A stretch of 64,000 bases of DNA from a virus: the IMG/VR virus record IMGVR_UViG_3300031088_000734; one strand, given 5' to 3'. The notes under the pieces are model-generated. The model worked only from the letters and a program-made list of their open reading frames with translations. It was not told the origin of the DNA and did no database searches. The translations under genes were made by a program, and so were the position numbers. This document shows positions 6,720 to 56,631 of this stretch, piece after piece (the stretch's first letter is position 1; each line of letters opens with the position of its first letter).

Positions 6720-6748
6720 TTGATTGCTTCGTTTCTTTTTGCTAGAAT
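6720..6748 (+). promoter_or_regulatory. Sigma70-type promoter of tRNA-like gene
   Basis: TTGATT-17-TAGAAT followed by CTACATTGAATGAG, identical to the tRNA-Cys leader. Confidence 0.7.
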
Positions 6749-6796: not shown

Positions 6797-6899
6797 GTGG
6801 ATGTGTGAGCGTAATAGGAGAGTTGGCCCTCCGTCCTTGAATAAAGGTTACTCTACTGTTGTATTGGTAACGTAGGTTCAAATCCTACCATCTGCACCA
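6797..6899 (+). tRNA. Aberrant 103-nt tRNA-like gene, identity unclear (G3-U70 and A73)
   Basis: Acceptor GTGGATG/CATCTGC, A discriminator, CCA; perfect T arm GTAGG-TTCAAAT-CCTAC; D-like arm GGAG-AGTTGGCC-CTCC; long variable arm TTAC..GTAA; non-canonical anticodon arm. Confidence 0.7.
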
Positions 6900-6905
6900 A
6901 ATTGC

Positions 6906-6934
6906 TTGATTGTTGTGATGGATTGTGGTATAAT
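6906..6934 (+). promoter_or_regulatory. Sigma70 promoter with extended -10 driving ncRNA copy 1
   Basis: TTGATT-17-TATAAT with TGn. Confidence 0.75.
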
Positions 6935-6943
6935 CATCACAGC

Positions 6944-7102
6944 AAACGAATTAGGAGCCTTCGTCAAAGAAGGTTGGATAGCAGCGGTGTCGCGGGCGAG
7001 CTATCACGAAAGGTGAGGAATACTCCCTTTCATAGTAACAAAGTCCATCGGGGTGTTTTCTGCCTTTGATTAAAACGCTTGGGTGAAGCGGTTCTTTGTT
7101 AC
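6944..7102 (+). ncRNA. Unassigned structured RNA, full copy 1
   Basis: Three hairpins then a three-way junction closed by GTAACAAAG/CTTTGTTAC, containing GATTAAAA-CGCTT-GGGTG-AAGCG. Confidence 0.75.
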
Positions 7103-7117
7103 GAACTTATTTGTCAA

Positions 7118-7182
7118 TTAGCGAAGGAATTATAGTCCTAGTGGCTATGATTAAAACGGTTGGGTGAACTGGCCTTCGTTAA
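7118..7182 (+). ncRNA. Unassigned structured RNA, three-way-junction-only copy 2
   Basis: TTAGCGAAGG/CCTTCGTTAA outer stem, GATTAAAA-CGGTT-GGGTG-AACTG. Confidence 0.75.
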
Positions 7183-7197
7183 GACCAATTTTAAAGG

Positions 7198-7226
7198 TTG
7201 TTATTTACAGGCGTTTGATGTATAAT
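7198..7226 (+). promoter_or_regulatory. Sigma70 promoter driving ncRNA copy 3
   Basis: TTGTTA-17-TATAAT with TGn-like context. Confidence 0.7.
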
Positions 7227-7237
7227 AGCGACATGTT

Positions 7238-7399
7238 AAACGAATACGGAGCAGCAGTTAAATGTTGCTGAATGGTAGCGGTGGTCGGGCGAGCCATTGT
7301 TTGAAGGAGAGGTGATTTCTTAGTCCCTCTCTTAGCAACAAGGGAATTGAGATGTTGTTGGTCTTGATTAAAACGGTTGGGTGAACCGGCTCTTGTTGC
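7238..7399 (+). ncRNA. Unassigned structured RNA, full copy 3
   Basis: Same AAACGAAT..GGAGC start and AGCGGTG..GGGCGA loop as copy 1; junction closed by GCAACAAG/CTTGTTGC with GATTAAAA-CGGTT-GGGTG-AACCG. Confidence 0.75.
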
Positions 7400-7463
7400 A
7401 AACCCTATTCCAAAGAGTTGTTAAATGACAGCTTTTTTCTTTTTAGCAGTGATGGAGATTGTC

Positions 7464-7676: not shown

Positions 7677-7748
7677 TGAAATACCTTTTTATTGGTGAAT
7701 ACTCAATTTATTGAGGTCGTAGGCTAGTCCCTTCTTCACCAGCCAGAT

Positions 7749-7861
7749 TTGCTGTAGGCTCTTGTAGCCTGTCCGACCGGGTTGTGACCGGGCAGCACCA
7801 GACGGTGCCCACCTAACAGTGGAGTCGATATGGCGTAGGTAATCGGTTCCTATTGCAGCAA
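7749..7861 (+). ncRNA. Candidate structured RNA A
   Basis: GC-rich island closed by TTGCTGTA/TGCAGCAA with internal hairpins AGGCT/AGCCT, TGTCCG/CGGGCA, GCACC/GGTGC, CCAC/GTGG. Confidence 0.55.
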
Positions 7862-7891: not shown

Positions 7892-7927
7892 ATGCCGACA
7901 TACGAAAAAATCTGGACACGATTATAA
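7892..7927 (+). CDS. 11-aa micro-ORF MPTYEKIWTRL
   Basis: GAGAG upstream; stop lies just before the SD of the next gene. Confidence 0.25.
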   Translation: MPTYEKIWTRL

Positions 7928-8114: not shown

Positions 8115-8268
8115 GTGGTTCTTACAGAGCAAGACCTGCATTAAGCGAAGACTGGCAGCTTGATACGGGATTTATACCGGCCCAGCGGAGTAGTGGAGTG
8201 ATAGGTGTATGCCTTGACCTTAGAAGCGATAATCTTCGGTGACTTGGTGGTGGAAAAAGATAAACCAC
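8115..8268 (+). ncRNA. Candidate structured RNA B
   Basis: GC-rich, no ORF, closed by GTGGTT/AACCAC, followed by terminator; shares AGTGGAGT(C)GATA(T)GGYGTA with RNA A. Confidence 0.5.
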
Positions 8269-8275
8269 ATAGAGT

Positions 8276-8302
8276 AAAAGACTTCTTCGGAGGTCTTTTT
8301 TT
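8276..8302 (+). terminator. Intrinsic terminator ending the RNA island
   Basis: AAAAGACTTC-TTCG-GAGGTCTTTTTTT. Confidence 0.85.
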
Positions 8303-32711: not shown

Positions 32712-33404
32712 ATGCTAACTCTTACTAAAACACATATAGAAACAGAAGTCTTTAAAGAGACTGTCTTGATTACGCCTGATCATGGTTCCTATGAGAATTT
32801 TGTGAGCGAATACAAAAAGAACATTTTTAATAAAGTTCAAGAAGTTATGGATTTTATCAGTCTTAAAATGGATGCAAAATTACGATTTCAAGTCAACGAA
32901 TTTGACAACATTTATGAAATTGCTTTGATGAAATTTAATTTCAGAAAGGTTACAGAAGGTAGATCGACCACTTGTATTATTACCTTTGATGGATATCTAA
33001 CTTTTGAGTGTAATAGATTTGCATTTAAATTTGACAATGCTTATTCATATTTCTACGCAATCTTGAATAAACAGTTAGATCTTGTTCAGTTTGAATACTC
33101 ATCAGTTCATTATAATAAACACAATGTTGATCGCAGTATCAACTTGAAATTTGATAAAGACACAAACATGACAGAATATCATTACACAGTTTGTTCTACT
33201 TTTTTTGGATGGGAGATTGGGCGGTTAAAAAGCAAAGACATGCTTTGCTCTTATGCTGATGAATTGTTTTTGCACACTACACTCACCAAAAGAACACCTT
33301 TGATGGATGAATTATTCCCAGAATTGTCTGTTGATGGTGTTTATGATTTTTCATCACAAGATTTTGCTGATCGATTGTCGATCTTTTCTATGCTAACTCT
33401 TTAA
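32712..33404 (+). CDS. Family A paralog
   Basis: ELFPELSVDGVYDFSSQDFADRLSIFSMLTL. Confidence 0.8.
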   Translation: MLTLTKTHIETEVFKETVLITPDHGSYENFVSEYKKNIFNKVQEVMDFISLKMDAKLRFQVNEFDNIYEIALMKFNFRKVTEGRSTTCIITFDGYLTFECNRFAFKFDNAYSYFYAILNKQLDLVQFEYSSVHYNKHNVDRSINLKFDKDTNMTEYHYTVCSTFFGWEIGRLKSKDMLCSYADELFLHTTLTKRTPLMDELFPELSVDGVYDFSSQDFADRLSIFSMLTL

Positions 33405-33416
33405 AGGTTTGACATA

Positions 33417-34025
33417 ATGAATATGGCAGATAACAGGCTAAAAGAAGCAGCAAATTTAGCGAAATCTAAAATTTGTGATTCTCTCTCACTCATTGAGCGA
33501 AAATTTAATATGAATTTTGATTTTAAAATCACCGAAAATGCTAAAAATATAGTATTTTCCAGTGTGAAAAACTATGATCTTAAATTCTATCAAACACACG
33601 GTAAAATTATATTTAAACCTGTTCATGATGAATTCATAGTTAAAGTTAATGACTTTAAACTGGCATTACCTAATGCCTTACAATCTTTTTTTATTATTAT
33701 ATTTAATGATAATTTTGATATCATATCCATAAAATTTACATCTTACAAAAAACTACCTTTTGGGCTTTCTAAAATAATTGTACTTTTTGATGATCAACTT
33801 GAACTTGATAATATTGAATACTATTCAACTTCCGGCAACTCTTTCAATAAATCTAAATGCTTATTAAACTCTTTTACGGATGAAGTTTTGCTGTTTATTT
33901 TATTCAACAATACCACTGATGTGGTAAAAGAATTGTTGCCAGAGTATCACATTCCATCGGCTTATGATTTTTCATCACAAGATTTTGCTGACCGATTAAA
34001 TGTTTTTTCCATGCTAACACTTTGA
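33417..34025 (+). CDS. Family A paralog
   Basis: ELLPEYHIPSAYDFSSQDFADRLNVFSMLTL. Confidence 0.8.
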   Translation: MNMADNRLKEAANLAKSKICDSLSLIERKFNMNFDFKITENAKNIVFSSVKNYDLKFYQTHGKIIFKPVHDEFIVKVNDFKLALPNALQSFFIIIFNDNFDIISIKFTSYKKLPFGLSKIIVLFDDQLELDNIEYYSTSGNSFNKSKCLLNSFTDEVLLFILFNNTTDVVKELLPEYHIPSAYDFSSQDFADRLNVFSMLTL

Positions 34026-34041
34026 TAATGGAACTTATATT

Positions 34042-34707
34042 ATGAACAAAATTGAGTATTATTACGAAGTAAAAGAAGAAGACTTAAAACTAAACGATAG
34101 CTTTGTCGCTGCAAAAAAAATAGTTATTGATAAAATTTTTGCAACTATCAAATATATTGAAGACAGATTTAATGTTTCTATTTCTTGTCTTTTAAAAAAT
34201 GATAATACAATTATTTTTGAGAGTATTGGACCAGTAGATTTCGAAATATCTATAAATAAAAACACTTCAGATGAAAAATTGTCTTATATTGCAAAATCTG
34301 ATACAAACTACATTTCGTTTTTAGTCTATGACTATGCTTTTTCTTTAAAAAACAAATGTAAATTCACTGTTGAATTTGATTCAAATTTAAATTTTCTAAC
34401 ACTTTCGATACTGTCATCAAGACTCAATAAATCAAGAACAAAATTTTCTTTTCTGTCTTTAAACTTTGACACTAATCTTAATTGCAGTAGTATTGAACAT
34501 ATAGATCAAGATAACGATTATAATCTTTCGAAGACTGTTGATACATTGTCAACTTATGAAGATGAGTTAATGTTATTTAAGATCTATGAAAGCAATCGAG
34601 AGACTTTGATAAATGATTTCCCTGAGTTCTATATTCCAGCAGCTTATGATTTTCAATCGGAACAATTTGCAAATCGTATCAAAGTTTTTTTAATGTTAAC
34701 TTTTTAA
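34042..34707 (+). CDS. Family A paralog
   Basis: DFPEFYIPAAYDFQSEQFANRIKVFLMLTF. Confidence 0.8.
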   Translation: MNKIEYYYEVKEEDLKLNDSFVAAKKIVIDKIFATIKYIEDRFNVSISCLLKNDNTIIFESIGPVDFEISINKNTSDEKLSYIAKSDTNYISFLVYDYAFSLKNKCKFTVEFDSNLNFLTLSILSSRLNKSRTKFSFLSLNFDTNLNCSSIEHIDQDNDYNLSKTVDTLSTYEDELMLFKIYESNRETLINDFPEFYIPAAYDFQSEQFANRIKVFLMLTF

Positions 34708-34723
34708 TTAGGAAAAACCCAAT

Positions 34724-35365
34724 ATGTTAAATACACAAGCTACATTACAAGAATTTAATGAGTACATTCAAGAAAAAAAGAAATCAATTATACAAAAGAT
34801 CCATGAATCCATTTTCAAAATTGAACAACATTTCAATATTAAATTTACCTATGATGTGATGGAATTTGATAATGATATCATTATTAAAGGTGTTGATGAG
34901 TATTCTTTTACTGTTTCCAAATGGTTTCAATCAAAAATACATCCTTATAATTTATTGAAATTTAATTGCACTGGATTTCCTTTTGTCCTTCCTAATAGTC
35001 ATAAAACGATTTTTTTTATTACGTTTAATGATGATTTTGATATTAAAGAAGCTCAATTTAGGACTTCATTTTTGACTAAGAAAGGCAATATAACTGGTCT
35101 AAAGATTTTTTTTGATAAATCACTTGAGTTGAATCTTATAGAAAATAGTTATATTCCAAGTGGTGGTGGCAAAAACAGTTATAGTTTAAAAACATCAGAA
35201 ATGATGTGTCCATTTTCAGATGAGGTTATTTTATTTCGATTGTCTTATAACACAAGTGAAGAAGTTCAAGAACTGTTACCAGAATTCTACATTCCATCAG
35301 CCTACAATTTCCAATCAGAAGATTTCAAAAATAGATTAGCCGTTTATGAAATGATGACTACTTAA
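34724..35365 (+). CDS. Family A paralog
   Basis: ELLPEFYIPSAYNFQSEDFKNRLAVYEMMTT. Confidence 0.8.
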   Translation: MLNTQATLQEFNEYIQEKKKSIIQKIHESIFKIEQHFNIKFTYDVMEFDNDIIIKGVDEYSFTVSKWFQSKIHPYNLLKFNCTGFPFVLPNSHKTIFFITFNDDFDIKEAQFRTSFLTKKGNITGLKIFFDKSLELNLIENSYIPSGGGKNSYSLKTSEMMCPFSDEVILFRLSYNTSEEVQELLPEFYIPSAYNFQSEDFKNRLAVYEMMTT

Positions 35366-51179: not shown

Positions 51180-51953
51180 ATGAGTTTTCAAGAAACCCTT
51201 CAACGAAACATAAATCATACCTTCTCGGTAGACTTTCATGTTGCCATCAAAAAGAAATTGGTGATGTTGTTGAAAAAGGTTTGTAAAATAGATATTTCTC
51301 ATTTTGATGAGAATGACCCCAACTACTTTCAATTCGATGAAACGTATCAACACCGTCATCGTATTAGGTATGACTTCAACTACACTGGGGATGATGTCGG
51401 TGAAGCCGAAGCTCATATCACTCTGGATGGTGGACGCTTCTTTGTAACTTTTTTGTTTTATAAAAAGGAAAAACATCCATCCTTGCCTGCTGGATCGCAT
51501 TGTGTCGATATAGATGTTGATCCTAAACTACGATATCGGTTTGCTAAGTTTTCAACACGATTTGATTTTGGTTGGCAATCCGCCGACATTCGTGAGCGTG
51601 GATTTTTCTTGTTTACAAAAGACATGGACAGTAGAATGAATGTGACGACATCTATTAAATGTTTTACGCAAAACCCCCGTAAAAAAACAAAGATATTAAG
51701 AAAAAAAGATTTACCAGCAGTATTCTTTGAAAATAATCATCATTTTTATGACCGATTGAATAATCTATTAGACTACTGTGAAATGCGACCAAAAGTCTTT
51801 TACGAAGTCTTTGATGAATATCCTGATCATGCCACGTTATCTAAGGGTAGTGATTCTATTACAAGTTTTTTGACGTTGTTTCATGAACAATATCAAATTG
51901 ATTTAAAAACTCTTGATTCAAAGCTTCTCTTGCTTGAAATGGACACTATATAA
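51180..51953 (+). CDS. Family B paralog 1
   Basis: F.EYP.H....FL.LF..QY...L...LLLLEMDTI. Confidence 0.8.
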   Translation: MSFQETLQRNINHTFSVDFHVAIKKKLVMLLKKVCKIDISHFDENDPNYFQFDETYQHRHRIRYDFNYTGDDVGEAEAHITLDGGRFFVTFLFYKKEKHPSLPAGSHCVDIDVDPKLRYRFAKFSTRFDFGWQSADIRERGFFLFTKDMDSRMNVTTSIKCFTQNPRKKTKILRKKDLPAVFFENNHHFYDRLNNLLDYCEMRPKVFYEVFDEYPDHATLSKGSDSITSFLTLFHEQYQIDLKTLDSKLLLLEMDTI

Positions 51954-51954
51954 T

Positions 51955-52752
51955 ATGACCAGTATTCATACACAATTACTGATGAGCAAAAATGTTCATG
52001 AGTTTGATGATGATCTTAACAATCAAATTATTGATAAACTTTTACACATATTCCAGTCTATCTTTGATGAAGATTTATCAACTGAACAGAATACTTTTAG
52101 AGTAAAGCCAGTTTCATTTGGTATGGCTATTCATGTTGAATACATGTTCAAATATGGAATGGTTTCCGTGATGGCAAAAAATAATGACATGACAGTTTCT
52201 TTTGTTTTTGATAGAGATAAATGCGATGATCTTTATATTCCATTTAACTGCACACGGTGCGAAGTTCAGGTTGATGATGATTTAAACTTTGAAAAAGCAG
52301 TGTTTAATTTTTATGCAACCATCAATAAACCTAAAATTGAAACTAAATACGCTTCAAAATATGTCGGTTCAGTTTTGGTTTCAGATCCACACCATGCGAC
52401 TATTGATATTCGTCGGACGATAGATAAACAACGGAAAGTTTCTACATGGATTACCTATGACAATTTTTATTCAAAACTGGGAGACTATACTGAATTAACT
52501 ATGTCAGAATTGCACAAGGTATACTTTAATCCAGATAAGGATTTTGAAGATTTCTTTGTTAAAATAATGATGACATTAAATACCCGACCACAACAATTTT
52601 CATCGGTCTTTACTGAATATCCAACGCATAATCAAATTATGCACAACAAAACAGCAGCGGTTAACTTTTTGAATTTGTTAGTCGATGACTATTTTAATCG
52701 TTTTCATTTGTTGGAAGCTAACCTGTTATTACTTGATATGCAGGTCATATGA
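51955..52752 (+). CDS. Family B paralog 2
   Basis: Ends LLLLDMQVI. Confidence 0.8.
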   Translation: MTSIHTQLLMSKNVHEFDDDLNNQIIDKLLHIFQSIFDEDLSTEQNTFRVKPVSFGMAIHVEYMFKYGMVSVMAKNNDMTVSFVFDRDKCDDLYIPFNCTRCEVQVDDDLNFEKAVFNFYATINKPKIETKYASKYVGSVLVSDPHHATIDIRRTIDKQRKVSTWITYDNFYSKLGDYTELTMSELHKVYFNPDKDFEDFFVKIMMTLNTRPQQFSSVFTEYPTHNQIMHNKTAAVNFLNLLVDDYFNRFHLLEANLLLLDMQVI

Positions 52753-52753
52753 C

Positions 52754-53539
52754 ATGGCTACACTCTTAGATAGAATTTCAGAAATAGAAAAAGAACAGCT
52801 TCCTGATGCTCTTGATTTTGACATTTCAAATAAATTAAAAACATTGTTGAATATTACTTTTAATGAAGACTTATCAGACCCGGATGATCTGAATTGCATT
52901 GAACTTGTAGAAGTATTTATCTATCAAAATAATGAACAAGTAGACATTTCCTATTGTTTTAAATTTGGTGTAGCTTTAATTTCTTTTCATCGTGATCTTG
53001 GCATGTTGAAAGTTTTATTTCTATGTCATCAAAATAGTCATGATTTATATAATTCTAATGTCAATTATGAAGTAGTTGTTGATGACGAGCTTAATTTTCA
53101 AAGTTTCTCATTCTGGCGATTATTTGAATTCTCGAAAGACTTTAAAGATAATAATAAATATACATCATCATGGTCTAACTTATTATTTGACATTAAAACG
53201 GATAGATTTTTAAATGTCAGTAAAAATCTTCTATATCGGAATGAAGAAATGTATACAATCTCTGCAGATGATAAAAAAAATCTTTTTGATTATGGCCTAA
53301 ATCCTGTTTTTTATCTTTCTAGCCGACACTTTGATGAGTTATTGTTAAAATTTTTAAAATATTGCATGAAAAACACTCAACATTTCTATTCTATATTTCC
53401 TCATTATCCAAATCATATTTGCTGTATGGAATCGCTCAGTAAAACAGTTGACTTTTTAAATATTTTTTGCAACGAATATAGAGACAATTTGACAATTTTG
53501 GAGTATAATATCCTACTACTTGATATGCAGGGCATTTGA
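52754..53539 (+). CDS. Family B paralog 3
   Basis: Ends ILLLDMQGI. Confidence 0.8.
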   Translation: MATLLDRISEIEKEQLPDALDFDISNKLKTLLNITFNEDLSDPDDLNCIELVEVFIYQNNEQVDISYCFKFGVALISFHRDLGMLKVLFLCHQNSHDLYNSNVNYEVVVDDELNFQSFSFWRLFEFSKDFKDNNKYTSSWSNLLFDIKTDRFLNVSKNLLYRNEEMYTISADDKKNLFDYGLNPVFYLSSRHFDELLLKFLKYCMKNTQHFYSIFPHYPNHICCMESLSKTVDFLNIFCNEYRDNLTILEYNILLLDMQGI

Positions 53540-53540
53540 A

Positions 53541-54305
53541 ATGACTAACATCTATGAGGCAATGGTACACTTTAAAAAGACCAAAGAATCCCTATGGGGG
53601 ATCAGTCCATTGATTAGCTCCAAACTTGTGCCCTTATTTTATCAAGCTACTGGCATAGAGCTTCTGGGTGATGAACAGCACTTCACCAACAATATCAGTG
53701 TTTGTGGTTTGGAAGTGGCGATGGATTACTTCTTTAAATACGGCTCAGCCACGTTGAGTTTGAAAAATGATGAACTAGAAGTAGGGTTTTATTTTATTAA
53801 TAAACCAGATGATGTTTATCCGACCCCTTTTAATGCCAAACAATGCAGGGTATATATTGATCGTGATTTGAACTTTAAACACGCTATTTTTCATTATCAT
53901 GTTAGCTTTTCAAAAGCTCTTCTAAATAATTACGATCAAAGTGCTGTCTATGCCGCCATTAAAATTCAAAAAATCATTGAACAAGGTTCAACAAGAACTA
54001 CTGTTGGCTATCAAAACCTGCTTTCTAAGGCCAAAGAGTATACATCACTTCATGATAAAGGGTTGGATCAGCACTTCTTTGAAACTGATGTTCAATTTGA
54101 ATTGTTTTTTGTTAAGTTCATGGAAGCTTGTTCTAAACGACCTTACCAATTCTATGAACTATTTCCAGAATATCCAAGCTATGTTGATTTTATGGAAAAG
54201 ATGCACAAAGCTGTTGAATTCTTGAACTTGTTCAATTTCCAATACATTAATCAGTTTGATGTGTTAGAATCTAAACTTATCTTACTTGATATGCAGGCGA
54301 TTTAA
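53541..54305 (+). CDS. Family B paralog 4
   Basis: Ends LILLDMQAI. Confidence 0.8.
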   Translation: MTNIYEAMVHFKKTKESLWGISPLISSKLVPLFYQATGIELLGDEQHFTNNISVCGLEVAMDYFFKYGSATLSLKNDELEVGFYFINKPDDVYPTPFNAKQCRVYIDRDLNFKHAIFHYHVSFSKALLNNYDQSAVYAAIKIQKIIEQGSTRTTVGYQNLLSKAKEYTSLHDKGLDQHFFETDVQFELFFVKFMEACSKRPYQFYELFPEYPSYVDFMEKMHKAVEFLNLFNFQYINQFDVLESKLILLDMQAI

Positions 54306-54306
54306 T

Positions 54307-55113
54307 ATGAAGACAATTTATGAGCAATTGATGGAATTGAAAGATGTCGAAAGTCTTCATAGATCGGAAACTACTTTATTTTTAGGTGCCGATTGTATTA
54401 TTGGCGACGATGTTATTGATGATATTTTAGTTAACGAGAAGCTTACAGAGTTGTTTTACAAAGTTTACAGTATTCAGAAACCTTATGAGCAACCTTTGTT
54501 TGAAAGAAATATATCATCTATTGGCCTTCAAATAAGTGTCGCTTATAATTTTCAATATGGTTCAGTTCACCTTGCGATTGAAGACAATAAATTATTAGTG
54601 ACTTTTTATCATAACGAGGACTGGTTTAAAGCTCCATTTGGCACAGACCGTTGTATTGTTTCTGTAGACCATGATTTAAATTTTATTCAATCTGAATACT
54701 CTACTTATTTTGCATTTTTAAACAGTATTTGGTATGAAAATGGTGGTTATGGCGGTTACAATCATATGCAAATTAAACAAGTGACTAATGCCTCTGGAAC
54801 ACGCAATCAACTTGCTTTTTGTCACTCTACTGATGATGATGATTTGCTTAAAGATGTTCAAGAAGGTAAACTGGATAAACGTTTTTCGACACCCAACGTT
54901 GAATTGGAAAACACATTTTTTCAAATTATTGATTTTGTGACAGATAAACCTCACGAATTTTATGCCATTTTTCCTGATTACCCTAGTTTTTCAGATTGTG
55001 TTGATAGCTCTGATCGTGTCATTGATTTTGTTAACTTGTTTGTTGAACAGTATTTTAATGATAATGAAGGCTTACAACAACACTTGTTATTACTTGACAT
55101 GCAGGCGATTTAA
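54307..55113 (+). CDS. Family B paralog 5
   Basis: Ends LLLLDMQAI. Confidence 0.8.
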   Translation: MKTIYEQLMELKDVESLHRSETTLFLGADCIIGDDVIDDILVNEKLTELFYKVYSIQKPYEQPLFERNISSIGLQISVAYNFQYGSVHLAIEDNKLLVTFYHNEDWFKAPFGTDRCIVSVDHDLNFIQSEYSTYFAFLNSIWYENGGYGGYNHMQIKQVTNASGTRNQLAFCHSTDDDDLLKDVQEGKLDKRFSTPNVELENTFFQIIDFVTDKPHEFYAIFPDYPSFSDCVDSSDRVIDFVNLFVEQYFNDNEGLQQHLLLLDMQAI

Positions 55114-55114
55114 T

Positions 55115-55864
55115 ATGACTACACTTTATAAACAGTTTACTAAAGTTAGAACAGCCAAGAAAAAATGGTTGTATACGCCAGATGTTCAACAAAAACTGAT
55201 TGAACTCTTTAAAATCGTTTGTAACATTGACCTTTCTACTGAAGAAACTCCATTTAAACCCGATGGTGCATCGTTCGGCATGGAAATTGTGTATAACTAT
55301 GCATTTAAGTATGGTAGAGTTTTTGTCCAAACGGCTAAAACAGAAATGCAAGTTACGTTTATTATTGATAATCCGCATGAACTAATTATTCCATTTAGTG
55401 TTTCAAATCGTTCACATACTTGTACAGTTAAGGTCGATCATGACTTGAATTTTATAGAAAGTCGAGTTAGTTTTTACAGTTCTTTCTCAAATAGAACGTT
55501 GGATAAAGATCGTTCTGGTTATGTTATCTTTTGTTTTGAAAATATTAATGATGGCACTAAAACCTTTAATAATGTTTCTTACAGTTACAAGTCGGAAAAC
55601 TATATAGATTTAACGCCCTATGGCCTTATCAATTACTCAACACCTAATAATGACTTTGAACAACTACTAATCGAGTTCATGATTTTCTGTTCAGAAGAAC
55701 CAGAAGAATTTTATAATATTTTTGTTGAATATCCAACCTACGAAGAACTTACTAACAGTGTTGATAATTTGGTTGTTTTCTTAAATCTTCTCAAACAACA
55801 ATACATTGAAAATAGAGAACTTTTGCAATCCCGTGTGTTGTTATTAAATATGCAGGCCATCTAA
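55115..55864 (+). CDS. Family B paralog 6
   Basis: Ends VLLLNMQAI. Confidence 0.8.
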   Translation: MTTLYKQFTKVRTAKKKWLYTPDVQQKLIELFKIVCNIDLSTEETPFKPDGASFGMEIVYNYAFKYGRVFVQTAKTEMQVTFIIDNPHELIIPFSVSNRSHTCTVKVDHDLNFIESRVSFYSSFSNRTLDKDRSGYVIFCFENINDGTKTFNNVSYSYKSENYIDLTPYGLINYSTPNNDFEQLLIEFMIFCSEEPEEFYNIFVEYPTYEELTNSVDNLVVFLNLLKQQYIENRELLQSRVLLLNMQAI

Positions 55865-55866
55865 TT

Positions 55867-56631
55867 ATGACCACTTTCTACGATAGACTTTTAATCGCAA
55901 AAGATTCAACTGATCTACTTTCCGATATGTTAGACGAAATTAGCCAAAAATTATTGCAATTACTGTATCAATCTTGTCATATTGATTTGTCTCACATTGA
56001 CGAACCTTTCGTGGCAAATCATGTTGGTGTTGATAATGACTTACATATTCAGTACAACACTATTTTTGGTGGAGCTAACCTTTCATTATTATCTTCTACA
56101 CATGAGTTAGAAGTTGAATTTGATTTTTCAAATGAATATCGCACCGAATATTATTACAAGTCAAAATATTGCCTTCTAGAAATTGATAACGACATGGTAT
56201 TAAAAAAATCTAGATTTAATAATTCTTTTCCATTTTCAAAGGCTGTCTTGGATAACGCTTATGCCAGTCATATTTTTTCTTCTCTTCGTATTGATACTTA
56301 TGTAGACTATCTATCGAATGTTTCTAAACATTTTAGCTATGAAAATTACCTTTATCATACATTTCCAAAAGATATGCGAGCTTATGGTTTGAGTGCTTAT
56401 TTCTATCAGACTGACAAATCTTTTGAAGACTTATTAGCCACTTTCCTAATTCATGCTGGCAATCATCCTTTTATCTTTTACGAGTTCTTTAACGAATATC
56501 CAAGCTATCTTGACTTAATGAATGGCATTGAACACATGATTCAGTTTCTTGAACTGTTTAAAACCCAATATATTAATGATCCTGATTTACTTAAATCAAA
56601 AATATTGTTAATTGAAATGAAGTTAATTTAA
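55867..56631 (+). CDS. Family B paralog 7
   Basis: Ends ILLIEMKLI. Confidence 0.8.
   Translation: MTTFYDRLLIAKDSTDLLSDMLDEISQKLLQLLYQSCHIDLSHIDEPFVANHVGVDNDLHIQYNTIFGGANLSLLSSTHELEVEFDFSNEYRTEYYYKSKYCLLEIDNDMVLKKSRFNNSFPFSKAVLDNAYASHIFSSLRIDTYVDYLSNVSKHFSYENYLYHTFPKDMRAYGLSAYFYQTDKSFEDLLATFLIHAGNHPFIFYEFFNEYPSYLDLMNGIEHMIQFLELFKTQYINDPDLLKSKILLIEMKLI

Follow-up and report, generated by a model that had tools for sequence, protein, structure and literature searches.

A modular, covarying RNA family with an A-loop-like three-way junction in the tRNA islands of giant phage-like elements

What kind of molecule is encoded where a phage-like element writes the same three-way junction three times within a few hundred nucleotides, and what might such a molecule do? 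The DNA analyzed here (the window, 64,000 nucleotides) is one end of a 179-kb IMG/VR record with a GC content of 33.9%. Two sister RNA genes were found on the plus strand at positions 6941–7440. RNA A (6941–7192, putative ends) consists of a head, a hairpin (Pc), and two three-way junctions, possibly closed by a helix, P0; RNA B (7233–7440, putative ends) consists of a head, Pc (7305–7333), one junction, a tail, and a terminator. The original prediction of a triplicated junction was confirmed, with copies at 7035–7102, 7118–7182, and 7335–7399 (junctions 1, 2, and 3) whose P1 and P3 stems form as claimed, and so was that of a 5′ head shared by copies 1 and 3 (6948–7005 and 7242–7298), including its exchanged stems. 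A 20-nt core was present three times in the window, did not appear in 100 shuffled sequences, and had no further occurrence in the rest of the 179-kb record. Folding compared with shuffled sequences gave z-scores of −3.0 for RNA A and −3.9 for RNA B, and the plus strand was the better folding one.

The head of RNA A begins with a conserved 5′ segment, RAAUWNGG (6948–6955), followed by hairpin Pa (6956–6975), whose 7 bp covary freely (100% of the alignment cells paired, double changes at 5 of the 7 pairs), and by hairpin Pb (6977–7005), with 6 bp, an A/RA internal loop, two invariant G-C pairs, and a G-rich loop of 8–10 nt. The optional hairpin Pc (7008–7031) contains a bulged U and holds an AGGTGA in paired form. 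In junction 1, P1 encloses P2 (7047–7070), the unpaired UAAAA (7071–7075), and P3 (7076–7090, loop 7081–7085). Junction 2, which has no head of its own, repeats this order (P2, 7129–7151; UAAAA, 7152–7156; P3, 7157–7171) and ends in a 3′ tail (7183–7192) resembling the NCCA-AAUU ends of the tRNA genes in the island; the tails of the family are also similar to the sequence 3′ of tRNA CCA ends in these islands. Junction 3 in RNA B (P2, 7346–7368; UAAAA, 7369–7373; P3, 7374–7388, loop 7379–7383) is followed by an intrinsic-terminator-like hairpin and U run (7416–7438), which is conserved in seven relatives and was not flagged by the scan that yielded the promoter sites described below. The conserved 5′ segment is complementary to the 3′ tail, with 73% of the cells paired in a sequence-only alignment, and in 9 of 16 folds the predicted probability of pairing with one tail reached 0.6 or more; this lends weak support to a P0 that may close the RNA. 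In several A-type RNAs the predicted folds favored pairing with the second tail, which fits a single transcript carrying two junctions.

The compensatory changes claimed for P1 and P3 held across the family: 95% of the stem cells pair across 27 distinct junctions, and six of the top seven column pairs by MI-APC in these junctions, with columns anchored on the junction, are predicted base pairs. Because the alignment register was picked for maximal pairing and the sequences are related, this support for covariation is strong yet uncorrected for phylogeny. Among 18 full-length RNAs, Pa, Pb, and P3 were 100% paired with many double changes; P2 is misaligned in the sequence-only alignment of these RNAs, and its pairing was taken from the junction-anchored alignment. 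The originally proposed linker, GATTAAAA, was upheld for its UAAAA part only, as its GAT pairs at the base of P2, forming an A-U and a U-A pair in all 27 junctions, and is thus the 3′ strand of P2. With the end of P1 being C-G in 16 junctions and A·G in 11, the junction strands are 0, 5 (UAAAA), and 0 nt long. Conservation was concentrated in the junction core, the P3 loop (RGGYG), and the Pb apex, with column values of 0.99 for the linker and 0.93 for the P3 loop as against 0.65 for P1 and 0.59 for outer P2. The GG at positions 2 and 3 of the P3 loop is invariant in 28 junctions, the last G of the loop is invariant too, and the fourth letter of the motif varies between U and C.

The search for homologs, which combined pattern scans, neighbor-protein searches, and two covariance models, recovered about 14 distinct related giant phage-like contigs carrying 1–4 copies each, mostly beside tRNA or tRNA-like genes. 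Close relatives retain the A-B layout. More distant architectures were modular, comprising the junction alone, a head with one junction, a head with two, and a different head: a 437-kb genome (G001) carries three copies of head plus junction as well as a junction headed differently, L008 has a single copy immediately upstream of a tRNA gene, and L006, in one of the tRNA islands, has a junction by itself downstream of a promoter-like site. L060, which was found only after the models were built and had no part in building them, carries one full copy whose stem sequences are new; it fits the fold with E-values of 4e-13 and 1e-10. Thirteen further loci picked up by a relaxed head pattern were all chance matches. 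When the 20-nt core was compared with 185,579 species genomes, only L005 and L006 matched, neither being a cellular-genome homolog; the former is a chance match in a coding region, and the latter is an element-like contig binned into a MAG. Blastn against cultured phages and plasmids returned nothing relevant, and the literal RNA sequence had no match in the literature.

As the original prediction proposed, comparison with Rfam 15 by Infernal gave no match at gathering thresholds or at E-values up to 10 for an identifiable family; the riboswitches, ribozymes, SRP, 6S, tmRNA, Csr, Y RNA, GOLLD, and ROOL families were covered, and the best score inside the RNA (E 0.6) was miRNA/snoRNA noise. The RNA copies share no conserved open reading frame. 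Together with the covarying fold, these data sustain the claim of a structured RNA family outside those described: it is a real, undescribed family belonging to a broadly known kind, the stable structured RNAs of phage tRNA islands, and the unnamed candidates among the 8,495 IMG/VR motifs of Fremin et al. 2023 (PMC10690425) may include it. New structured RNA families with such depth of covariation and such free modular recombination are uncommon.

Each full copy had been proposed to have its own near-consensus promoter. Predicted sigma70-like sites were indeed present on the plus strand at 6906–6934 (promoter A, 10/12 consensus positions, extended −10, conserved position) and 7198–7226 (promoter B, 10/12), and although AT-rich DNA of this kind has many of them, with 32 observed against 20.8 expected, 13 of the 15 heads examined have a −10 hexamer 9–16 nt upstream. 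Independent transcription and action in trans are probable, the downstream neighbors being variable and a terminator-like hairpin following RNA B. An imperfect inverted repeat (6911–6943) spans promoter A, is partly retained in relatives, and is a possible operator.

No gene neighbor was constant across all RNA copies, which are interspersed with tRNA genes, tRNA genes with amber anticodons, and tRNA-like RNAs of several kinds that contain long inserts. Amber-anticodon (CUA) tRNA genes of related islands were found in L022 (5948–6021) and L026 (13097–13172), and tRNA-like genes have been gained or lost beside the RNA in L012 (12650–12824), L040 (8082–8256), and L001 (460–538); one of these, in which a long insert separates the 5′ half of a tRNA from a T-arm, lies directly 3′ of RNA B, and another lies 5′ of RNA A. 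In the window, a tRNA-like RNA (6797–6899, plus strand) that has CCA and a T-arm yet lacks a proper anticodon arm follows a promoter at 6720–6748 and matches a tmRNA end weakly (E 2.5e-7). Its G3·U70 is retained in close relatives and is A-U in L007, so an alanine identity is not general. Also on the plus strand are a multi-hairpin RNA (7715–7855), conserved in close relatives with few compensatory changes and no Rfam match, and a structured RNA (8125–8272, terminator 8276–8299) conserved out to G001 and L060, with double changes at 11 of 31 predicted pairs. An 11-codon minigene, MPTYEKIWTRL (7892–7927, plus strand), shows synonymous changes, occurs at six loci, and immediately precedes a 53-aa basic ORF of phrog_7399; it is a possible leader peptide. 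Tandem arrays of paralogous proteins at 32712–35365 and 51180–56631 share an end motif with a Met four residues from the C-terminus.

The carriers themselves are odd. The element encodes RRF and TrpRS; for both, the closest relatives that bear a name are gammaproteobacterial (52% and 69% identity, respectively). An identical RRF and gene block lies on a 1.28-Mb contig (L036, ENA, 1,281,823 bp), the same RRF is also on a 1.86-Mb contig, and a relative is on one of 0.83 Mb (P0001, P0009), placing this neighboring protein and gene block on contigs of 0.8–1.9 Mb. Since terminases of two families (PF03237 and PF04466) were not found in the partial records, the label "jumbo phage" is uncertain, and the carrier could be a giant element that is extrachromosomal or integrated. 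About 61 kb from RNAs A and B, the same genome encodes a separate RNA that copies 23S H43 and H44 (blastn E 0.004) and is conserved in G001, G003, and G005, with compensatory changes in G001. It lies at about 125550–125970 on the minus strand (G000 C1, locus L053), has an insert of about 250 nt, and precedes a tRNA-like unit whose anticodon is CUA.

The junction core has counterparts of known structure. The A-loop, or lone-pair triloop, is a family C three-way junction known from picornavirus IRESs, solved in domain V of the HAV IRES and at U1082-A1086 of 23S rRNA (PMC6689051), and it also occurs at H90-H92 (U2562-A2566) of 23S rRNA (PMC2952862). By the definition in PMC6689051, strand lengths of 0/5/0 with U-N-A-A-A were found in 27 of 27 junctions, with UAACA in one lineage. 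The likeness extends to the U-NAA-A loop, the A-U and U-A pairs preceding it, the purine mismatch or C-G pair at the end of P1, and the helix order of H42-H44, and by this comparison with solved structures the junction would be an A-loop three-way junction. A descriptor built from the family invariants matched only 23S 1057–1102 in E. coli rRNA and 2 of 1500 shuffled sequences, but it was relaxed post hoc with the match already seen, and without the allowed 2-nt bulge in H44 it misses the GTPase center; covariance models had no significant match in rRNA, the junction model finding nothing in 23S. The motif occurs three times in 23S rRNA and may therefore merely signal a stable fold. Unlike in H42-H44, the loops are unrelated to A1067/A1095 and there is neither a K-turn nor an A1088 bulge; the junction is a free-standing, repeated module. 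A mimic of the GTPase-associated center (the L11/thiostrepton site) was rejected on the variable P2 loop, the RGGYG of the P3 loop, and the missing U1060·A1088-type bulge. As the loops and K-turn of that center are absent, the junction is not a full mimic, and we conclude that it probably has the same three-dimensional building block as H42-H44, in the same helix order, and is not a functional copy of the GTPase center. Nature would here have put the ribosomal A-loop junction to a second use, as a portable scaffold for display.

The Pb apex also resembles ribosomal RNA, namely the apex of 23S helix 13 (E. coli 242–257), where a GGCGA loop sits on a two-pair stem above an A/GA internal loop. 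The flanks of the loop match, both having two G-C pairs above an A/RA internal loop, and both loops open with GGYG. Helix 13, an E-site helix bound by bL35 (PMC13372681), was the only rRNA match of a Pb apex descriptor, which also matched 6 of 1500 shuffled sequences. However, the Pb loop is 3–5 nt longer, that of L060 opens with GAGG, and the model E-value was 1.5, so that this likeness remains a mere lead. A likeness to the 690 loop of 16S rRNA was at chance level (E 5.4), with no descriptor match.

Our best guess as to function, and a tentative one, is that the RNA is stable and serves as a multivalent protein decoy or scaffold, with host translation or RNA surveillance as the target. On this reading, A and B would each fold independently into a stable RNA, would be transcribed from an island of tRNA and tRNA-like genes in a giant phage-like element, and would act in trans as part of the element's set of tRNA and rRNA look-alikes. 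Judging from known structures, P1 would stack on P3 and the UAAAA loop would dock through A-minor contacts, so as to display the conserved RGGYG loop at the tip of a rigid junction. Repeated rigid units may thus present G-rich loops (the P3 loop, the Pb loop, and the bulged U) to one protein factor, most likely in host translation or RNA surveillance, such as an anti-phage ribonuclease or a ribosome-associated protein, which would be sequestered during infection or maintenance. The free variation of the stems around near-fixed loops and a near-fixed junction core counted for this reading, as did the flanking tRNA and tRNA-like genes, the RRF and TrpRS of the element, and its separate H43/H44 copy, and the presence of 1–4 junctions per element suits titration. 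Of the original prediction, a covarying, modular RNA that is probably independent and trans-acting was supported, and the protein sponge that it raised corresponds to our best guess; the P3 loop is GGGCG in 5 of 27 junctions and also in L060. A wider reading, which we regard as doubtful, is that phage-like elements of megabase scale produce a whole set of small RNAs imitating the translation machinery (tRNA bodies, the GTPase center, and the present head-plus-junction RNA with its helix-13-like and H42-44-like modules), which would serve as decoys against host defenses or against stress sensors by which rRNA and tRNA are read or cut.

Conserved G-rich loops are as compatible with RNA pairing as with protein binding. 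The GG of the P3 loop could pair with CCA ends, either those of tRNAs or those of the tRNA-like RNAs in the island, which would make the RNA a tRNA chaperone, protector, or sensor. Pairing with CCA ends has precedents in the 23S P-loop, RNase P L15, and T-box antiterminators, and it would account for the invariant GG in 28 junctions and the location of the copies in tRNA islands; the U/C alternation at the third pairing position would suit A or G discriminators, and duplexes of −4.5 to −6.4 kcal/mol are possible. It leaves the invariant last G of the loop and the head unexplained, however, and a 5-nt loop on a 5-bp stem holds just 2–3 pairs; this alternative is unlikely. A self-assembling structural RNA, whose loops or CC tails would pair between modules, would resemble multimer-building RNAs such as GOLLD/ROOL and the phi29 pRNA. 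The modules are in tandem and CC or CU in the tails could pair with the loop GG, but U-to-C changes in the loop are unmatched in the tails (L001c, L011a) and single-module genes exist (L006), and we consider this quite improbable.

A decoy of the GTPase-associated center that binds L10(L12)4 or L11 would draw on the junction topology and flanking A-U and U-A pairs of H42-H43-H44, and an unpaired UAA, part of the L10 target (PMC4538822), is present in the linker. That target also requires a kink-turn (PMC4538822), and there is no K-turn at the base of P1; the rplJ leader was matched by neither descriptor nor model, the P2 loop is variable, the P3 loop differs from that of H44, there is no A1088-type bulge, and the faithful H43/H44 copy is present elsewhere in the genome, so that we hold this reading to be very unlikely. 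That the RNA is a ribozyme or a processing element, cleaving or shielding a polycistronic tRNA-island transcript, also seems very unlikely: the conserved core amid variable stems, the position between tRNA-like genes, and, in G001 and L008, a tRNA gene starting a few bases 3′ of the tail would suit it, while no Rfam ribozyme matched at E-values up to 10, a non-catalytic three-dimensional motif accounts for the conserved core, and the RNAs have predicted promoters and a predicted terminator of their own. A cis pseudoknot of the xrRNA type between the P3 loop and the tail was rejected, as GGGCG loops keep the same tails, no covariation was seen, and the linker is just 2–3 nt.

The original prediction had also raised GGUGA loops complementary to the anti-SD sequence, and hence an anti-SD or 30S sponge. 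The GGGUG and AGGUG loops of junctions 2 and 3 are accessible, and as unconstrained oligomers they pair with the 16S tail at −8.3 and −7.1 kcal/mol. However, these energies presume opening of the stem, the A following the P3 loop is paired, a true SD reaches −12.2, and the GGGCG variant weakens the duplex from −8.3 to −4.4 kcal/mol. The AGGTGA of Pc is paired save for one bulged U (unpaired probability of about 0), Pc is missing in two G001 copies, and AGGTGA is lacking in L008, L011c, and L060; being paired and unconserved, this hairpin makes anti-SD binding unlikely, and the sponge as a whole scarcely credible. Equally hard to credit is a cis riboswitch or attenuator, since the order promoter, structure, terminator, ORF in the window, L001, and L039 is offset by a variable downstream element (an ORF, a tRNA-like RNA, tRNA-Cys, another tRNA, or a further RNA copy), by the absence of a terminator directly behind the tail in most distant copies, and by the fact that no conserved antiterminator was seen.

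The decoy or scaffold reading can be set beside several known systems. The large GOLLD and ROOL RNAs and the YrlA Y RNAs are structured RNAs of phage tRNA regions. The present family is much smaller than GOLLD/ROOL and has no Rfam match to them; unlike Y RNA/YrlA, with its tRNA-like T-loop domain and nearby Ro60 gene, it has no T-loop, and no TROVE/Ro60 gene (PF05731) was found in four partial, fragmentary records. The CsrB/RsmZ sponges offer an analogy of mechanism as promoter-driven small RNAs with repeated hairpin loops, but they carry multiple GGA motifs in hairpin loops, whereas none of 28 P3 loops has GGA, the fold here is a rigid multiway one, and there is no Rfam match. Closest in setting are the species 1 and 2 RNAs of T4 (rnaC and rnaD), two small non-coding RNAs, functions unknown, from the tRNA region of that phage (PMC12685909), just as A and B form a pair in theirs. 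Homology was rejected, as neither model was matched; rnaC and rnaD end in tRNA-like 3′ ends, the A/B family lacks a T-arm, and the neighboring tRNA-like genes are closer to rnaC/rnaD than the family is. At 70–250 nt, the RNAs are small enough for direct probing, pull-down, and cryo-EM, and, if the decoy reading is true, they would represent a new RNA-based counter-defense and give a testable function to the stable RNAs encoded in phage tRNA islands, which have lacked an explanation since T4 species 1 and 2.
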